64,000 nucleotides of DNA from a phage, in sequence record PZ445511.1; one strand, 5' to 3'. Position 1 is the first letter of the stretch, and each line of letters starts with the position of its first letter. Of this stretch, positions 15,297-61,236 are shown piece after piece. The notes beneath the pieces are model-generated. The model saw only the letters and a list, made by a program, of their open reading frames with translations, did not search any database and was not told the DNA's origin. The position numbers and the translations under genes are program-made.

Positions 15297-15479
15297 TTAA
15301 AAATCTTCTTCACCATATTCTCCCTCCTTAATAAGGAACTCTTTCCATTCTGCTGTATCCTCATAGATAACGCAGAAATCATCACTCTTCCATGAGAAGT
15401 CATCAGTAGCAAATTCAAAACGGTAGCACCAACTACCGTCTGGCCATACTAAAAGATCACACATGCTTTTCTGGGACAT
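15297..15479 (-). CDS. Hypothetical small protein
   Basis: 60-aa ORF from internal Met (MSQKS...), overlaps end of Sir2-like gene. Confidence 0.3.
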   Translation of the reverse strand: MSQKSMCDLLVWPDGSWCYRFEFATDDFSWKSDDFCVIYEDTAEWKEFLIKEGEYGEEDF

Positions 15480-16308
15480 AAATATTTCCCTCCATAAAAG
15501 CTTCAACTTGATCAATAAAGTGTTTATTACCAAAAACTTCGGCAGCTCCAGCACGCCATACAGTAACACCACGTTTCTCATATTCAAGCTGTTCATCATA
15601 GCGAACTTGAGGGTTAACAACCATCATCTTAGTTCCACGACATACAGCAGGGAATAGTTCCCAGTTGAAGTCAATCACTTGGTTGCTACAACCTACTACA
15701 ATAACCATATCATTGCTAGTAAGTGTATCAAACAGGTTAATCTGACCCATATACCACGGAGCCGTCTCACCAAAGAATGTTACGTTTGGTTTTACCCATT
15801 CGTAATCTTCAGGAACAATTGCAGTGTATCCAACATCTTCGATGATTTGATTGCGACCCCGACGATAGATCACCTCTTTCAAGTACCCGTGAGCGTGAAT
15901 GATTTCATCACGAGGGATACCAGCACGTTCCAGAAGGTCATCAACGTTAGTAGTGAAGTTCTTCACGCTATCCGCACCATAACGCTGGAACCATTCTGCA
16001 ATTCGCAGATGGGCAATGTTAGGCTCAACAGTCTGTAATTCCTGACGACGCATGTTGTAGAACTCATGAGTCTTGAGATACAGATCGTTACCCTCTTCAT
16101 CAATGCCAGGGAAACGAGCACTGAAGTAGTTAGGATCATCTTCACCACAGAAGCGACGGAAGCCAGCTTCAAAGTTAGGCAAGCTACATACTTCCTCTAG
16201 ATCGTACTCATCCCACAAAGATTTTCCACTAGCAGTATCAGTACGGAAAGCACGAACACCACTATCAACACTTAAACCAGCACCACTAACAATGATTAGT
16301 CTACGCAT
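15457..16308 (-). CDS. Sir2-family (sirtuin-like) NAD-dependent protein
   Basis: 283 aa; N-terminal GAGLSxxSGxxxFR sirtuin NAD-binding motif and HG catalytic motif; no CxxC zinc module. Confidence 0.6.
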   Translation of the reverse strand: MRRLIIVSGAGLSVDSGVRAFRTDTASGKSLWDEYDLEEVCSLPNFEAGFRRFCGEDDPNYFSARFPGIDEEGNDLYLKTHEFYNMRRQELQTVEPNIAHLRIAEWFQRYGADSVKNFTTNVDDLLERAGIPRDEIIHAHGYLKEVIYRRGRNQIIEDVGYTAIVPEDYEWVKPNVTFFGETAPWYMGQINLFDTLTSNDMVIVVGCSNQVIDFNWELFPAVCRGTKMMVVNPQVRYDEQLEYEKRGVTVWRAGAAEVFGNKHFIDQVEAFMEGNIYVPEKHV

Positions 16309-16683: not shown

Positions 16684-16965
16684 TTAGTTCTGTACTGTAA
16701 ATTCATTCTTATCACAGTGAGCATAATAATACCCATACATACGATAAATTTTCACAGCCTTAGTAGACCCCTTCGATTCTTCATAATCAATCCAGAGCCA
16801 CTTGTCTTTACCTACATAATGTACCCGAAACTTCTTAACTTTCTTATCATTCCATGTTGCAACAACACGACGATAATCAAATCCGCCCAACCAATCTAGA
16901 GCCTTACGTTCTTCACTAGGCTCTCCAAGATGGGAAACATCTACTTTCGGAAGCAATTCGCTCAT
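16684..16965 (-). CDS. Hypothetical protein
   Basis: 93-aa ORF directly downstream of minus-strand promoter. Confidence 0.5.
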   Translation of the reverse strand: MSELLPKVDVSHLGEPSEERKALDWLGGFDYRRVVATWNDKKVKKFRVHYVGKDKWLWIDYEESKGSTKAVKIYRMYGYYYAHCDKNEFTVQN

Positions 16966-17063: not shown

Positions 17064-18938
17064 TTATTTAGCGCGAATGTCTTGATGTTTCACTCGACCC
17101 ATAACCTCATGTTGTTTACCTGGGTTAAACGGACGAGCACCTGGATTTCCAAGATATCCACAAACTCGACGAGTTACCTCAAGAGTCTCAGGATCATGAT
17201 TGCCACAAATTGGGCATTTGAAACCATCCTCAGAAGCTATAGTTTCACCCAAGAACCCACATTCCCCACAAGAGTCTACTGGAGTATTAATACCGAAGTA
17301 ATGAACTTTACTTGCAGCATAGTTAATAACCCATTCCAGTGCATCAGGGAATCGTTTCATATCAGGCAATTCCACATAGGAAATGCACCCACCAGAAGCA
17401 ATTGGGGTAAAGTTAGACTCATAATCGAACTTCACGTTCGGAGCAACCTTACGCTCCACATCAAGGTGATGAGAGTTAGTGTAATATCCTTTAACCAGAA
17501 TATCTTCATGCTCTGGGAAATACTCACGATCTAGACGACAGAAGCGATCACATAGAGATTCAGATGGTGTAGCATACAGACTATACCCTAATTGAGTCTC
17601 TTCCTTCTTCTGATCAGCACGATCACGCATGTATTGTAGCACACGTTGAACGAACTTGATACAGGATTCAGACATTGTATCTACATCTTTACCAAACATG
17701 AACTGTAACATTTCGTGGCAGCCAATATATCCTAGAGATACAGAAGCACGCTTGTAGAAATGATCAAATACATATTCATCTGGCCCCAGACGTAATCCAA
17801 AGGCTCCTGACATATAGAGGATGGGCGCAGCTTTAGCTTGAATGTACTTTAAGCGATCAACCCTCCACTCCAATGCTTTTAACGCGGTATCCACACGCAG
17901 CTCAAGCAGATCGAAGAATAGATCAATATTACCTTCCGCTTCGATAGCAATTCGAGGTAGGTTTACAGAAACAACGCCTAAGTTGTTACGACCAGAAGTT
18001 TCACCATCTTCCGCAGCAGCCAGGAATGAACGACAGCCCATAGAGACTTTGTAGTCTCCCGTAACTTCTACAACCTTATCATAACTGATGTAGTCAGGAT
18101 ACATACGTTCAGCAGTACATTTCATAGCTAACTTCTTGATATCATAGTTAACATCACCAGGTTTCATGTTTACGCCATCACGCAAAACAAATACCAGTTT
18201 AGGGAAGATAGCTGTACGTTTATTGATACCCAAACCATCCATACGCACTTCTAGGATTGCTTTCTGTACAAGACGTGCTTCCCAAGAAGTTCCTAGACCA
18301 AACCCAAAGGTAATAAACGGACTTTGACCATTAGAGTTGAACATCGTATTGATTTCATACTCCAGGCCCTGACAGGCATCGTAAACTTCTTTCTCAGTCA
18401 TTTCCGTAGCCATTACAGATGCTTTAGCTTCATCCTTAGTCCAACGCTTTGCAAACGCATGATTCTTATCATAAGACTTACGAACATAAGGAGCCAATAC
18501 TTCATCTAATCGGTCTACAGAAGTACCCCCATATTGATGTGAACTAACCTGAGTGATAATCTGAGCTGTGATAGCAGCCGCAGTAGTAATAGAGTTTGGT
18601 GTACTGATTTCAGCATTACCAACCTTCATACCATTCTTCAACATATCTTCCAAAGCAACCAGGCAACAGTTAGTCATACCTAACGCAGCGTAATCAGCAT
18701 CATGGAAGTGAATATCACCAATCATGTGAGCATTTCGAATCTGGATTGGCATTTCTTCCAGAATCAGATGTTTACTCAATTCCCCTGCAAGCATGTCCCT
18801 TTGTGTAGGGAAACGTTCGCTTGGTTTGTTCGCATTATTAAAGAGTAGCTCTTCATCTGCTGATCCTTCGATAATTTCTTTGCAGTTTCGAATTAAGGAC
18901 TGCACTCCTTTATACTTTAGTTCTTCATTGAGATTCAT
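17064..18938 (-). CDS. nrdD: Anaerobic ribonucleoside-triphosphate reductase (class III RNR)
   Basis: 624 aa; C-terminal glycyl-radical motif RVCGYLG and Cys-rich zinc ribbon CGECG...CPICG; strong SD AAGGAGG. Confidence 0.9.
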   Translation of the reverse strand: MNLNEELKYKGVQSLIRNCKEIIEGSADEELLFNNANKPSERFPTQRDMLAGELSKHLILEEMPIQIRNAHMIGDIHFHDADYAALGMTNCCLVALEDMLKNGMKVGNAEISTPNSITTAAAITAQIITQVSSHQYGGTSVDRLDEVLAPYVRKSYDKNHAFAKRWTKDEAKASVMATEMTEKEVYDACQGLEYEINTMFNSNGQSPFITFGFGLGTSWEARLVQKAILEVRMDGLGINKRTAIFPKLVFVLRDGVNMKPGDVNYDIKKLAMKCTAERMYPDYISYDKVVEVTGDYKVSMGCRSFLAAAEDGETSGRNNLGVVSVNLPRIAIEAEGNIDLFFDLLELRVDTALKALEWRVDRLKYIQAKAAPILYMSGAFGLRLGPDEYVFDHFYKRASVSLGYIGCHEMLQFMFGKDVDTMSESCIKFVQRVLQYMRDRADQKKEETQLGYSLYATPSESLCDRFCRLDREYFPEHEDILVKGYYTNSHHLDVERKVAPNVKFDYESNFTPIASGGCISYVELPDMKRFPDALEWVINYAASKVHYFGINTPVDSCGECGFLGETIASEDGFKCPICGNHDPETLEVTRRVCGYLGNPGARPFNPGKQHEVMGRVKHQDIRAK

Positions 18939-18967
18939 TACACCCTCCTTCTCTAATTAAGACTACT

Positions 18968-18996
18968 ATTATAACTCATTCGAAGGCGGATGTCAA
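18968..18996 (-). promoter_or_regulatory. Consensus sigma70 promoter for nrdD
   Basis: Reverse complement is exact ttgaca-17bp-tataat. Confidence 0.65.
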
Positions 18997-19188
18997 CAAT
19001 ATTTTACCATAAAGTTCTGTAACATGATCTGAGTCAAAAAATTTTATTTGCCAACCTCTATTAAAAATAGTATAATCACACGCCCGTGTACGCGATATAA
19101 AATGATTATCTAGTACCATACATCTCCCAATAAAAGCAAGTAAATTTTTTATTTAAAAGCAATATCATGGGTTTATTTAAAATTATAC

Positions 19189-19217
19189 TTGCTTTTTGCT
19201 GTAAACCTTGTTATAAT
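19189..19217 (+). promoter_or_regulatory. Sigma70 promoter for phoH operon
   Basis: ttgctt-17bp-tataat with A/T-rich upstream region. Confidence 0.6.
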
Positions 19218-19293
19218 ATATTTGTAAGTTGATAAACAAGATCTCTTTGTTGATCCTCTGTTAGAAGCGAAGTACACTATAGGAGTGTTATTT

Positions 19294-32927: not shown

Positions 32928-32965
32928 TAATAGTGGGGTGCCGAAACCACTTATGTAACAACACT

Positions 32966-33037
32966 GCCGTCCTAGTATAATAGGTATTATTAGGGCTTCA
33001 CCGCCTGAAGATGTGGGTTCGAGTCCCACGGTCGGAA
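32966..33037 (+). other. tRNA-like element (canonical T-arm, non-canonical anticodon arm, no CCA)
   Basis: gtgggTTCGAGTcccac T-arm plus 6-of-7 acceptor pairing; 5-nt loop where anticodon loop should be. Confidence 0.3.
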
Positions 33038-33499
33038 AGAGTTGGATAACTGGTGCTTCTAATGGCGAAGCAATCGCAGGCAGTTGCGCACTGCCAAAAC
33101 CACGCGGTAGTTGGTTCCAGGCTAACCAACCACTCTTGAAAAGTATATACTACGGTTTTGCTTGTTCAGGAAGCTTCGCATCGAAAATCGGAGGTGCGAT
33201 TTTATCAGACCGCGTGGAGGACGTCTCTCCGTTAAGTGACGAAAAGTGGGACGATTCAGGTAGAGCTGGATATGGAACACCTATACATATGCGGAGTGCG
33301 CACAAAGCATATTGCGGTGGTACTAAACGAAATTAGGAGTCATGACCTGCACAAGTTTAGTATGTCATAACCGATGTACATTCAGTACAAAAACCACTGA
33401 AGCTAAGATAGATAGTCACCTTGACTTAAACTGGAAGATATTGTCTGACGGAAGGGCTGCAGAGCTTAATCTGAGGGGGCTGACCCTACCTACCGTCGG

Positions 33500-35596: not shown

Positions 35597-36652
35597 ATGA
35601 TTAAGACTGGTCTAGTAATTGGTAAGTTCGCACCATTAACGCGTGGTCATATTAACCTAATAAACACAGCAGCAACTATGTGTGAACGAGTTATTGTTGT
35701 AGTTAGTCATGATAATCGTTGGCTGGATAAGCAGAACACACGTGATAAGGAAGTATTACAGTTAAAGAATCGACTTCGTTGGTTAGAACAAACTTACGCG
35801 GATATTGAGCACATTTCGGTAGAGTACATTATTGAAGATGATATTCCTGAATATCCGAATGGTTGGCCGGAATATGCTAGAATCCTTAATGAAAATTACG
35901 GACATTTGCCTGAGATCACCGTTTTCTCTAGCGAACTAGACTATGATGCAGAATATAAGAAATATCTGCCGAAGTTTGGTCATTATATTGTAGATTCTGA
36001 TCGGACTCGTGTTCCAATCTCAGCTACAATGATTCGTAATGATCTTATGAAGTATTGGGAGTTTCTTCCTAGCGTAGTTCGTAAAGATTACGTGCGTAAG
36101 GTTGTAATCATTGGGACTGAAAGCTCGGGAAAGACTACTTTAACAAAATACCTTGCGAAGCTATACAACACTTCGTGGGTAGAAGAATATGGTCGAACGT
36201 ATTGTGAAGTTGATCTAGTTGGTAACGAAAATCTGCTTACCAGCGAAGATTATAGTAAAATTGCGTTCAGACACAAAGAGCTAGAGTTTGAAGCAGAACG
36301 TACTGCAAATAAGATCATGTTTGTGGATACAAATGCTTTTATTACTGAGTTCTACCACAGACTTTATGAACATAGTAAGAATCCTGTGGTTACAGCAATT
36401 GCAAAAGAAGAACATTATGATTTAGTAATTGTTCTAGCGCCTACTGTCAAGTGGGTAGATGATGGTTTACGTATTAACTCCGATCGTTCAATTACTTCTG
36501 AACTATTCGAGCAGATGAAGAAAGAATTTCCAAATCAGTTCCCTGAAGGGCGTACTGTTTACATCGACTCTCCGGACTACAAAGTTCGTATGGACGAAGC
36601 AGTAAACGCAGTAGACTGGCTGATTCATCACTTTAACGTTGGAGAGTTTTAA
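35597..36652 (+). CDS. nadR: NadR-type bifunctional NMN adenylyltransferase / ribosylnicotinamide kinase
   Basis: N-terminal nucleotidyltransferase GKFAPLTRGH (HxGH-class), C-terminal P-loop GTESSGKTTL kinase; start set after gagagagg RBS. Confidence 0.75.
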   Translation: MIKTGLVIGKFAPLTRGHINLINTAATMCERVIVVVSHDNRWLDKQNTRDKEVLQLKNRLRWLEQTYADIEHISVEYIIEDDIPEYPNGWPEYARILNENYGHLPEITVFSSELDYDAEYKKYLPKFGHYIVDSDRTRVPISATMIRNDLMKYWEFLPSVVRKDYVRKVVIIGTESSGKTTLTKYLAKLYNTSWVEEYGRTYCEVDLVGNENLLTSEDYSKIAFRHKELEFEAERTANKIMFVDTNAFITEFYHRLYEHSKNPVVTAIAKEEHYDLVIVLAPTVKWVDDGLRINSDRSITSELFEQMKKEFPNQFPEGRTVYIDSPDYKVRMDEAVNAVDWLIHHFNVGEF

Positions 36653-36653
36653 T

Positions 36654-37331
36654 ATGACTAACTATCTCGTAAATGACTTTAAAAACTGGAAACCTCTGGA
36701 ATATCTGTGGCTGTTCATAGCGGTTGTCTTCATTAGTTTAGCAAACTATAATGGTACAGCTCTAGATTGGGCTACTGCAATAACCAATGTGGTTTGTGTT
36801 ATTCTGGTTGCAAAAGGACGTATTTCCAACTATATTTGGGGCTTAGTGGGTGTTCTTACATATGGTATTACAGCTTTAAACGCAGATCTTTATGGTAACG
36901 CTGCACTAAACCTGCTATACTACGTTCCTATGCAGTTTTATGGAATGTACTTATGGCATAAAAATAAGCCAAGTAATCTGCCAGATGTTCCAACTAAGGT
37001 TCTGACTAAAGCCCAAGCTCTGCTGACTCTAGGGATTCTAGCAGTAGCCACGTTAGGGTATGGTAGTTTCTTAGCTACTACGGCTGATCCATTTCCAATG
37101 TTGGATGCATTTACTGCTGTAGGTAGTGTGATCGCTATGTGGCTTATGGTTAAGCAATATGCCGAGCAGTGGCTGATCTGGATTGCTATTAACATTGGTA
37201 CTGTGTACATTTGGCTTGTAACTGCTCAATCTACAGGTGCATCTTATGCAATCCTAGCAATGTGGCTAGTATTCTTAGGTAACTCTATTATAGGAGCCTA
37301 TAAAGGATACTTTGTACGCGTTAACAAATAA
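36654..37331 (+). CDS. pnuC: PnuC-like nicotinamide riboside transporter
   Basis: Multi-helix membrane protein with conserved W/Y-rich PnuC-like blocks; coupled to nadR. Confidence 0.65.
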   Translation: MTNYLVNDFKNWKPLEYLWLFIAVVFISLANYNGTALDWATAITNVVCVILVAKGRISNYIWGLVGVLTYGITALNADLYGNAALNLLYYVPMQFYGMYLWHKNKPSNLPDVPTKVLTKAQALLTLGILAVATLGYGSFLATTADPFPMLDAFTAVGSVIAMWLMVKQYAEQWLIWIAINIGTVYIWLVTAQSTGASYAILAMWLVFLGNSIIGAYKGYFVRVNK

Positions 37332-37338
37332 AGTAGTT

Positions 37339-37364
37339 ATAGCCCTCGCTTAGAGGGCTATTAT
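37339..37364 (+). terminator. Hairpin terminator after pnuC
   Basis: atagccctc-gctta-gagggctat, weak U-tract. Confidence 0.45.
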
Positions 37365-37378
37365 ACAGAAATTTTCAC

Positions 37379-37407
37379 TTGCTTAATATAGAAAATTTCT
37401 GTATAAT
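37379..37407 (+). promoter_or_regulatory. Sigma70 promoter
   Basis: ttgctt-17bp-tataat; -10 plus leader plus RBS duplicated from nadR promoter. Confidence 0.6.
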
Positions 37408-37437
37408 ATATTTATAAATTTGAGAGAGGAATCAAAT

Positions 37438-37734
37438 ATGAAACGCATTGTACTTGCATTGACTCTAGTATCTACTTCTGTATTTGCTGCTCCACAACAG
37501 GAACTTTGTCAAGTTCAAGTTTGTAATAAGCTAGAACGATTTACTCTAGACATTTGGTCCCACATTAAAGATAATATGGGTGAACAGTGTTTTGATATTG
37601 TTCTGCCAAAAGAACAAGCTGTTCCTGGGGCTGTTCTCAGCTCAGAATCACGTTGGTGGCAAGGTTCTTCTATCAACCCAACTAAGAAGTCAGTGACACG
37701 TATCAAACAAGTATATCAGTGCAACGTTCAGTAA
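37438..37734 (+). CDS. Secreted Cys-containing protein
   Basis: Signal peptide MKRIVLALTLVSTSVFA then mature domain with 4 Cys. Confidence 0.55.
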   Translation: MKRIVLALTLVSTSVFAAPQQELCQVQVCNKLERFTLDIWSHIKDNMGEQCFDIVLPKEQAVPGAVLSSESRWWQGSSINPTKKSVTRIKQVYQCNVQ

Positions 37735-46123: not shown

Positions 46124-46152
46124 TTGCCTTCTCTCTTATTTCTTGTTATAAT
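46124..46152 (+). promoter_or_regulatory. Sigma70 promoter
   Basis: ttgcct-17bp-tataat. Confidence 0.5.
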
Positions 46153-46677: not shown

Positions 46678-46753
46678 GCTCCGATAGTTCAACAGGTTAG
46701 AACAGGCGACCGATAATCGTCAAATCTTGGTTCGATCCCAAGTCGGAGTACCA
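46678..46753 (+). tRNA. tRNA-Ile (anticodon GAT)
   Basis: Acceptor gctccga/tcggagt, D-arm gttc...gaac, anticodon stem ggcga/tcgtc loop ccgataa (C33), T-arm cttggTTCGATCccaag, CCA. Confidence 0.65.
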
Positions 46754-46759
46754 AATTAT

Positions 46760-46835
46760 AGTTAGTTGGCAGAACGGTTATGCACCTCCTTCATACGGAG
46801 CGACTACAGTGGTTCAACTCCACTACTAACTACCA
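46760..46835 (+). tRNA. tRNA with CAT anticodon (Met or Ile2)
   Basis: Acceptor agttagt/actaact, anticodon loop ttcatac, T-arm agtggTTCAACTccact, CCA. Confidence 0.6.
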
Positions 46836-47018
46836 AAGATAAGATCAGGCCTTTGTGCCAGATCTCTGTGTTTATTAAACTGAATGGGACTATCAATCCA
46901 CAAGCCGGACTACGAGCGATTATCGGGTATTCACTTAATAAACAGCCTGCCTCCCAGTTTTTATCTTGCTTCTGGGTTAACAAAAAGCTGAGCCAAATTC
47001 TAACATCAGGGAGATCTA

Positions 47019-47387
47019 ATGAAAGCATATCAAAGTCTTAAGTCTGGCGTAATTAACATTGTTCATAACAATCAGATCATTCAACTATATTCTAAAGATG
47101 GTAAACTTAAACAGAAAGTTCTAGTCGAAGATCTAGAAGGTATCACACCTCACTTTGACCCTGAGGCCTTTCGCATTGTAGATGTGGAAGTGGTTCCTCA
47201 AGTCGAGGGTGGTCAGCACCTAAATGTCAATGTGTTAAGCCGTGATCAGCTTTTGGATGCACAGAAACATCCTGAAAAATATCCTCAGTTGACCATCCGT
47301 GTCTCTGGCTATGCTGTTCGATTTAACGCATTGACGCGTGAACAACAGAACGACGTTATTAGTCGTACATTTACTCAGGCGATATAA
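47019..47387 (+). CDS. grcA: Autonomous glycyl-radical cofactor (GrcA/YfiD-like)
   Basis: 122 aa; C-terminus [12 protein letters not shown]...[28 protein letters not shown] closely resembles the glycyl-radical domain (RVSGY). Confidence 0.75.
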
Positions 47388-47468: not shown

Positions 47469-47768
47469 GTGGATCGAGCATTAAGACGCCATCACCGGCA
47501 ACGTGTGAAAAACAATCGCAAAAAGTATTGGACAGTCTTCCCACATGAAGAAAGTCCTAAGCGGTTAGGCATTATCACTACCACTCCTTGCATCTGTTCT
47601 TGTTGGATGTGTGGGAATCCTCGCAAATACTATAAGAATAGTAAAGCAGGTATGAAAATCTCGGAGATTAAAAAGATGGGTGCAATGATTATGGGCATCA
47701 CCTTTACAGGCGGTATCTCTGATGAATTCGACGGTTTTGTAACTCAGGATATTGTCGAAATTATCTAA
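47469..47768 (+). CDS. Hypothetical Cys-rich basic protein
   Basis: 99 aa (GTG start after aggag); CICSCWMCGNP cluster. Confidence 0.45.
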   Translation: MDRALRRHHRQRVKNNRKKYWTVFPHEESPKRLGIITTTPCICSCWMCGNPRKYYKNSKAGMKISEIKKMGAMIMGITFTGGISDEFDGFVTQDIVEII

Positions 47769-47778
47769 TTAATAATAA

Positions 47779-47815
47779 ACCCCAGCTATTGAATAGGTAG
47801 TCTGGGGTTTTCTTG
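47779..47815 (+). terminator. Rho-independent terminator
   Basis: accccag...ctggggt hairpin followed by TTTCTTGT. Confidence 0.6.
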
Positions 47816-55215: not shown

Positions 55216-55626
55216 ATGTCAGATCGTTACTATACTCAGATGGCTAACCATTACAATATGGCTCCGTATGAATTGAACATCGCATTACGTGACCTCGATT
55301 CACCAGAGCGTGCAAAACTTGAGAAAAAGGCGGGAATTCGTATGTCTAGCAAGGGCAAGAAACTTACTCGTATTGACTTAAATACCATGCTAATGGAAGA
55401 GCTTGGCGTGAATATTGAAGGTCAGAAGTTGCCTCTCAATGTTCTTGAAACGATGCTGGATAAAGTCAAGAAGAAAACCTATAAGAAAGTACAAGTACCG
55501 GAAGGCAGGCTAAAAGCCCCTTATCAAGCTGCTGTATCCGAGTGCTTAGGTGCTACCTTAGATCTTAGCACTGCAACTGTCAAGGTAATGAAAGGCTTTT
55601 TGGAGGCCATTAATAAACATGAGTAA
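55216..55626 (+). CDS. Hypothetical protein
   Basis: 136-aa ORF with gaggag RBS. Confidence 0.6.
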   Translation: MSDRYYTQMANHYNMAPYELNIALRDLDSPERAKLEKKAGIRMSSKGKKLTRIDLNTMLMEELGVNIEGQKLPLNVLETMLDKVKKKTYKKVQVPEGRLKAPYQAAVSECLGATLDLSTATVKVMKGFLEAINKHE

Positions 55627-55909
55627 ATTAATATATCTATTAAAAGGTTCCACTTGCAACCCATGTAAACTTTTCGAGCCTGTATTCGATAAAGTAGTAC
55701 AGGGCTACAGTCTAGAAGTTCATAAAGAGACTGATAATACAGAACTTATGCAGAAGTTCGGTGTTAGACAAGTTCCTGTAGTAGTTCTAGCAGATCGTCT
55801 ACCGAATGGTCGTGTGGAAGCCAACCACATTCTGATTGGTCGTCAGCTTCGTAAGGAAACTATGCACGATGCAATCAAAAACTTCCTGGAAGATAATCCA
55901 GAAGATTAA
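55619..55909 (+). CDS. Thioredoxin/glutaredoxin-like protein
   Basis: 96 aa; CxxC active site STCNPCK near N-terminus. Confidence 0.55.
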   Translation: MSKLIYLLKGSTCNPCKLFEPVFDKVVQGYSLEVHKETDNTELMQKFGVRQVPVVVLADRLPNGRVEANHILIGRQLRKETMHDAIKNFLEDNPED

Positions 55910-60447: not shown

Positions 60448-60911
60448 CAGCACTGCAAAGATTACAAAATTACTGGTTTGATGGCCAATTTAATGATTTA
60501 TTCATCCAGTTGTTTGTCGAAACGAATGGACGCTTTAACTACCGCTTCTTTAATACCTTCCATGAAACGAAGTTCTCACATACAGAGATTAATGCGGCGA
60601 TTCAAGATCTCACCGGTTCTAAGGTAGTTCCTTATCGTGATGTAGATTTTGCACCTGACTGTTTTGGTTTTGAACTGTTCAAGAAAGCATATAAGTTCGG
60701 TAAGTTTGAAAATGCACGACATTGGGTTCATGACTTCTGGTATAATACCGATATCGTTCCTAGCCGTGTACTGATCCTCAACTGGATTGCTAAACAACAT
60801 CCGCCGAAAGCACAATCGGCATTCCTTCCAACTGATACAGGAAACCTTTACCATGACACAAAAGAAAAATCCAGTGCTAGAGCAGATGAAGCAGTTGGAG
60901 AAGCAGATTGA
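60444..60911 (+). CDS. Hypothetical protein
   Basis: 155-aa ORF, ATGA-coupled. Confidence 0.5.
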   Translation: MTALQRLQNYWFDGQFNDLFIQLFVETNGRFNYRFFNTFHETKFSHTEINAAIQDLTGSKVVPYRDVDFAPDCFGFELFKKAYKFGKFENARHWVHDFWYNTDIVPSRVLILNWIAKQHPPKAQSAFLPTDTGNLYHDTKEKSSARADEAVGEAD

Positions 60912-61236
60912 GGAAGGAAGCGTTGATGGGCAGTCAATTGTCAATCATGCTTTCGATCTTACAGTAGGATGTGCTAATCCGCTGGTGGCAGGTGAAACAA
61001 CAGATATTCTTGGGCTTTTAATGGCTGTTGGCCAGTTAATTGAGATTACCAAAGAAGAGTTAGACAAGGATGAAGAAGTAACTGTTCATGATGTTCTTGG
61101 TGCTCTAGATCTGATTGTTAATGCTTATGCCTATAAACGCCGCCACTCAATTGATGAATATCTAGTTTCTCGAGAGATTACCGAATCTCTTCTGGAAACT
61201 GCTGATATGGCCTTAAACGGCAAGCAACTTCACTAA
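60853..61236 (+). CDS. Hypothetical protein
   Basis: Overlaps upstream gene; start uncertain (track 60787, internal Met 60853). Confidence 0.35.
   Translation: MTQKKNPVLEQMKQLEKQIEEGSVDGQSIVNHAFDLTVGCANPLVAGETTDILGLLMAVGQLIEITKEELDKDEEVTVHDVLGALDLIVNAYAYKRRHSIDEYLVSREITESLLETADMALNGKQLH

Follow-up and report, generated by a model that had tools for sequence, protein, structure and literature searches.

A predicted stand-alone glycyl-radical domain of the GrcA/YfiD type encoded at the end of the tRNA-gene cluster of a T5-like phage

Results

The sequence analysed (the window) is a 64,000 nt stretch of phage DNA (PZ445511.1). In the 1.5 kb surrounding the gene described here it shares 99.9% identity with the T5-like Salmonella phage S147 (Demerecviridae, Markadamsvirinae, Epseptimavirus), and the ends of the window correspond to positions ~32501 and ~96691 of the S147 genome. 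The gene (nt 47019–47387, plus strand) is an ATG-to-stop open reading frame of 122 codons, the ortholog of T5.056 and of the same kind as Vs.6 (Y06I) of phage T4 and GrcA (YfiD) of E. coli. A Shine-Dalgarno sequence, AGGGAGA (nt 47008–47014, plus strand), can be read 4 nt 5' of the start codon, and T5 shows the identical CAGGAGATCTAATG context at the Shine-Dalgarno of its own ortholog. ARAGORN called 28 tRNA genes in the window, and the GrcA-like gene lies where the large cluster that they form ends. The cluster is opened by a tRNA-SeC with anticodon TCA (nt 32965–33038, plus strand; ARAGORN call, with tRNA-Sec annotated in S147), which may read UGA or act like a suppressor, unless the call is wrong.

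The probable start of the transcription unit is a sigma-70-like promoter (TTGCCT-17-TATAAT with an extended −10 TG; nt 46124–46152, plus strand), found at the place of the annotated T5 promoter P11, to which it is equivalent by position only. Directly 5' of the GrcA-like gene are tRNA-Ile(GAT) and tRNA-Met(CAT) (nt 46678–46835, plus strand), which are probably co-transcribed with it and have the identical order in T5. The last gene of the unit, directly downstream, specifies a cysteine-rich protein of 99 aa (nt 47469–47768, plus strand; PHROG 4499), the homolog of T5.055. It is followed by an intrinsic terminator (nt 47779–47815, plus strand) in which the hairpin ACCCCAG...CUGGGGU precedes UUUUCUU (dG −18.7 kcal/mol, z −3.7), and which is homologous to the annotated rho-independent terminator after T5.055. 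The corresponding T5 gene order is P11, T5.058, tRNA-Ile, tRNA-Met, T5.056, T5.055, terminator. The 99 aa protein has a basic N-terminus and a cysteine cluster, PCICSCWMCGNPRK, that fits the pattern CxxxCxxC, and in T5 as in the window phage its gene lies next to the glycyl-radical one. The leader between tRNA-Met and the ATG (nt 46836–47018, plus strand) is 183 nt long, compared to 13 nt in T5, and varies in length among relatives, in which it is present in full or from nt 31, nt 101 or nt 144. The 183 nt leader gave no Rfam match, and its predicted folding was not above that of shuffled sequences (z +0.5).

The initial annotation of this DNA, made by reading the sequence, had noted a close resemblance of the C-terminal 60 residues to the glycyl-radical domain of GrcA/YfiD, including the motif RVSGYAV. 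Formal alignment with E. coli GrcA bears this out: 49 of the 61 C-terminal residues are identical to GrcA, and 47 of the 61 (77%) to PflB residues 698–758. The domain comprises residues 61–122 (nt 47199–47384, plus strand), equivalent to PflB 698–759 and GrcA 66–127, and Pfam PF01228 (Gly_radical) matches residues 62–103 with an E-value of 3.9e-18 (66.4 bits, the cut-off being 22.2). RVSGYAV occupies residues 94–100 (nt 47298–47318), and its glycine, Gly97 (codon ggc, nt 47307–47309, plus strand), is where the radical is predicted to reside and corresponds to GrcA G102 and PflB G734. This glycine is conserved, as had been expected: it is invariant across 44 aligned phage and bacterial homologs, and the 25-residue block around it is nearly all invariant in the same alignment. 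The residues ahead of it (61–96) align with the strand and helix segment of PflB 698–733.

BLASTP with E. coli GrcA gave 74% identity over residues 51–122 of the phage protein (E 1e-37); the GrcA query was itself validated over its full length against NCBIfam TIGR04365 (234 bits). Among PDB sequences the best match was E. coli GrcA/YfiD (6owr_A, E 2.5e-29), with the PflB C-terminus (1cm5/1h16, E 1.6e-26) in second place. From end to end, the protein matches PHROG 1209 (E 5.7e-47, residues 1–122 on profile positions 1–121 of 121). The GrcA equivalog model TIGR04365 matched residues 54–121 only and scored 118.3 bits, below its cut-off of 170, because the N-terminal half of the phage protein is unlike that of bacterial GrcA. 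At 122 aa, with a C-terminal PF01228 domain of the formate-lyase type, the product has the size and domain content of a small stand-alone protein and is, as judged from its sequence, a GrcA/YfiD-type stand-alone glycyl-radical domain. A further tblastn match to GrcA (nt 55766–55882, E ~0.02) lies inside a 96 aa ORF (nt 55619–55909) that corresponds by position to an S147 gene annotated as thioredoxin, and was treated as a chance similarity.

The N-terminal half (residues 1–60; nt 47019–47198, plus strand) presents a different picture. Its first 50 residues show no similarity to GrcA that is detectable by BLASTP, in which the alignment covers residues 51–122 only, and MAFFT sets the N-termini of the phage protein and GrcA in a loosely shared pattern that lacks statistical support. 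The N-terminus of T4 Vs.6 can be aligned with it, both proteins having MKAYQ and DPE.F in common. A model made with AlphaFold2 from 42 homologs (mean pLDDT 75) predicts a beta-sheet in this half, with strands at residues 2–6, 12–16, 19–26, 29–36 and 51–54 (pLDDT 82–85 for residues 2–54), together with two helices and a hairpin (92–95 / 98–101) that carries Gly97 at its tip. The closest Foldseek match to the model was YfiD (6OWR; E 2.7e-6, TM-score 0.74 on the target), and crystal structures of pyruvate formate-lyase (PFL) came next. In the viral structure library, matches to the model were limited to other phage GrcA-like proteins.

Homologs were detected by tblastn in 1584 of 50,697 phage records, spread over T5-like, T4-like, jumbo and Vibrio/Aeromonas phages. 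At a threshold of at least 80% identity there were 440 such records, which matches the 441 that carry a T5-type major capsid protein at the same threshold; the gene is thus near-universal among the enterobacterial T5-like phages and in effect belongs to their core genes. Proteins that are 98–99% identical have already been deposited as 'glycyl radical cofactor', and the labels found among relatives also include 'autonomous glycyl radical cofactor', 'pyruvate formate-lyase', '2-ketobutyrate formate-lyase', 'acetyltransferase-related protein' and 'ribonucleotide reductase subunit'. Comparison with the T5 gene (88% nucleotide identity) gave dS 0.58, dN 0.038 and dN/dS 0.065, with values of 0.10 for the N-terminal and 0.026 for the C-terminal half. 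The low ratio in both halves indicates purifying selection and not a decaying gene fragment. At the DNA level the 3' half of the gene shows ~75% identity to E. coli pflB/tdcE, and such DNA is present in all 5426 complete E. coli genomes; the ~75% matches were annotated as pflB or tdcE among the matches listed. A closer copy of the 3' half was found in none of the 5426, and recent capture from the host was rejected on the grounds that the DNA identity to pflB/tdcE is only ~75%.

Several known proteins are useful for comparison. T4 Vs.6 (annotated as GrcA) is 51% identical over residues 1–122 (E 4e-38), with the shared MKAYQ start and DPE.F motif. Like the window protein, a member of PHROG 1209, it is phage-encoded, has ~120 aa and an identical glycine loop, and comes without a dedicated phage activase. 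The two differ in that T4 belongs to the Straboviridae and the window phage to the Demerecviridae, where the gene has a different genomic setting, inside a tRNA cluster; and while the C-terminal half of Vs.6 hardly differs from E. coli GrcA, that of the T5 type mixes GrcA-like and PflB-like positions. E. coli GrcA/YfiD (P68066; NMR structure 6OWR) is likewise a stand-alone radical domain with the RVSGYAV glycine, but NMR shows its N-terminal half to be disordered, while a beta-sheet is predicted for the phage counterpart. T5.056 ('putative acetyltransferase-related protein', IPR001150) is an ortholog of equal length (122 aa) in the same gene order, and differs from the window protein at nine amino acids, seven of them within residues 1–60; further orthologs occur in Epseptimavirus and Tequintavirus. 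Of PflB (759 aa), only the last ~60 residues are represented in the phage protein. The barrel and the catalytic Cys418/Cys419 of PflB are absent, so the protein is not a formate-lyase despite the 'pyruvate formate-lyase' labels carried by some relatives. A literature search for a paper dealing specifically with the T5-type protein found none.

A second glycyl-radical protein in the window, NrdD (nt 17064–18938, minus strand), had also been recognised in the initial annotation, and is genuine: it matches NF006732 with 840 bits, and its radical motif RRVCGYLG and the cysteine pairs CGECG...CPICG are intact when read in translation. The NF006732 match begins at model position 89, and the phage enzyme is read as a form without the N-terminal ATP-cone. 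Two NrdD types occur in T5-like phages, one in ~390 records at a minimum identity of 80% and a DT57C-like type at ~60%. The GrcA-like protein has no similarity to the NrdD of the window (best BLASTP E = 11), and the two genes are 28 kb apart on opposite strands.

The window had been described as free of an NrdG-like activase, and this holds there and, on a wider search, for the remainder of S147, a near-identical genome. Using E. coli NrdG and PflA queries that had been validated beforehand, tblastn found no homolog of either in the window or the remaining S147 genome (best E 0.2–0.9). Scanning the same sequences for CxxxCxxC gave no activase-sized ORF with the motif; the only ORFs of at least 90 aa that contained it were the 99 aa T5.055 homolog and an unannotated minus-strand frame at nt 60579–60944. 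The T5.055 homolog was considered as an activase and rejected, being too short for a radical-SAM protein and having no Pfam or NCBIfam match. No activase is annotated in S147, nor beside nrdD in DT57C.

A further candidate was an ORF of 93 aa (nt 16684–16965, minus strand; PHROG 7953) directly downstream of nrdD, the position of nrdG in nrdDG operons. It shows a short similarity to E. coli NrdG residues 87–122 (GKDKWLWIDY versus GKDIWVWTGY), with E 2e-4 in pairwise BLASTP and ~0.2–0.35 in tblastn. Cluster cysteines are lacking, neither Pfam nor NCBIfam models support it, and the ORF was set aside as an nrdG remnant; the similarity is either a chance one or the trace of a very degraded nrdG, and probably the former.

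Other features of this part of the genome include an additional hypothetical ORF of 223 aa in Salmonella phage rutana (MT074468, nt 65798–66469) that abuts the start of nrdD. It is missing from the window, where the nrdD–phoH intergenic region is nt 18939–19284, and is probably a mobile insertion, for example a homing endonuclease. An ORF at nt 15457–16308 (minus strand) corresponds to the gene annotated in relatives as a Sir2-family NAD-dependent deacetylase; DT57C and T5 annotate their own copy as defective or truncated. A NadR-type nicotinamide-nucleotide adenylyltransferase and a PnuC-like transporter, both annotated in S147, fall by offset at nt ~35760–37490 (plus strand) of the window. 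This NAD-related gene set suggests phage manipulation of NAD+ metabolism.

Discussion

A spare-part role of stand-alone glycyl-radical domains has been validated for PFL only, and YfiD and T4 Y06I are the sole proteins for which this was done (PMC8683613; PMC13450708). Both are reported to take a radical from the PFL-activating enzyme (PFL-AE), to bind PFL that has been cleaved by oxygen and to restore it (Wagner et al. 2001, BBRC 285:456, as described in PMC8683613 and PMC12338860), and the radical of GrcA G102 passes to C419 of PflB (PMC12338860). By analogy with these two proteins, from which the function is carried over, we infer activation by host PflA, PflB as the target and a benefit to the phage. 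The likely explanation of the gene is, in our assessment, that it supplies a spare radical domain for host PflB which is activated by host PflA and sustains fermentation in the infected cell. Host PflB is favoured as the target over the phage NrdD because the domain is of the formate-lyase type, has no similarity to NrdD and has a precedent in T4 Y06I.

Under this proposal the gene would be transcribed early, within the tRNA-gene cluster, and the radical-SAM enzyme PflA of the host would abstract a hydrogen from Gly97 of the 14 kDa phage protein. The C-terminal domain would then replace the radical domain of PflB, and possibly also that of TdcE, after oxygen cleavage at Gly734. Gly97 would hand the radical to Cys419 of PflB, and the conversion of pyruvate into acetyl-CoA plus formate, with ATP gained via acetate, could be kept going under microaerobic, gut-like conditions. 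Early in infection by a T5-like phage the host genome is silenced and broken down. With its genome degraded, the infected cell could not re-make the 85 kDa PflB or its own GrcA, which provides a rationale for a phage-encoded copy. Against such a benefit it can be said that the host already owns GrcA, and the gain from the phage copy is one that we infer.

The initial annotation had offered two alternatives, either a replacement radical domain or dependence on a host activase. These are not alternatives, as a spare part needs activation in its turn, which, on the model of T4 Y06I, would come from host PFL-AE (PflA). The implied link to the phage NrdD is not supported. A spare radical domain for NrdD might be expected in a phage that encodes this oxygen-sensitive glycyl-radical enzyme and in which no NrdG was found, yet the domain is of the PflB/TdcE type and gives E = 11 against NrdD, which has its own RRVCGYLG C-terminus with cysteine pairs. 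The distance of 28 kb and the opposite strands of the two genes, together with the validation of spare parts for formate-lyases only (PMC13450708), make this reading highly improbable. That the gene is the functionless, decaying remains of a pflB or grcA taken from a host is barely credible. The gene is located in the tRNA-gene region, which tolerates deletions in laboratory T5 mutants, but the ORF is intact and preceded by a good Shine-Dalgarno, a dN/dS of 0.065 at a dS of 0.58 is not that of a decaying sequence, and the number of records (~440) matches that of the T5-type capsid. An identity of just ~75% to the host genes, hence no recent capture, points the same way.

Two other readings concern what the protein does to the host enzymes. 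The main client could be TdcE (2-ketobutyrate formate-lyase), or PflB that is intact and not yet activated, with the N-terminal half directing the choice. The 3' half of the gene is equally close to tdcE and pflB, purifying selection acts on the phage-specific N-terminal half, for which a structured state is predicted, and GrcA rescues full-length PflB G734A in vivo, bringing back formate production (PMC12338860). T4 Y06I, however, has the same MKAYQ type of N-terminus and is reported to rescue cleaved PFL (PMC8683613), and the present data indicate no preference for TdcE; we regard a main client of this kind as unlikely. A decoy or modulator, soaking up PflA or occupying PflB and so damping or redirecting host fermentation, would be in keeping with the frequent use of host-domain mimics by phages and with an N-terminal half unlike that of GrcA. 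We hold this to be very unlikely, as the catalytic-loop residues and the radical glycine are all invariant, which a pure decoy would not need, the dN/dS of the C-terminal half is as low as 0.026, and the T4 homolog reportedly restores activity (PMC8683613).

With a spare part for PflB as the preferred reading, the N-terminal beta-sheet is one respect in which, going by the structural model, the phage type may differ mechanistically from YfiD. Residues 1–60 of YfiD are disordered by NMR, yet important for activation and for the binding of cleaved PFL (PMC8683613), and a predicted beta-sheet in the phage protein in place of this disordered half means that targeting could differ. One may go further and propose that the N-terminal half of the T5/T4 type is a folded beta-domain which gives a different targeting and lets the phage take control of host formate-lyase activity after shut-off, beyond the mere repair of oxygen damage. 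Such targeting might involve docking on intact or not-yet-activated PflB or TdcE, or a more efficient recruitment of host PflA. The dN/dS of 0.10, the pLDDT of ~83 and the restriction of matches to phage GrcA-like proteins are consistent with this proposal, which we nevertheless consider quite unlikely.

Autonomous glycyl-radical cofactors from phages have a record going back to 2001 (T4 Y06I), a kind of gene that the initial annotation had not recognised here; the T5 ortholog is in GenBank as T5.056, and neither the existence nor the likely role of the T5-type gene will surprise a specialist. What remains of interest is the N-terminal half, which is conserved and possibly folded, how widely the gene is spread, and the dependence on two host activases. 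It is a metabolic helper gene that is widespread over unrelated phage groups and often mislabelled, only one phage version of which (T4 Y06I) has been tested biochemically. T4 also encodes an NrdG for its NrdD. In T4-like relatives an activating protein is annotated beside nrdD, and the window phage has no such gene. The T5-like phages carry two glycyl-radical proteins and no activase, and in the absence of their own enzyme NrdD and the GrcA-like protein presumably must rely on NrdG and PflA of the host, respectively. Such a dependency would be relevant to phages used for the biocontrol of Salmonella and E. coli under gut-like, low-oxygen conditions.
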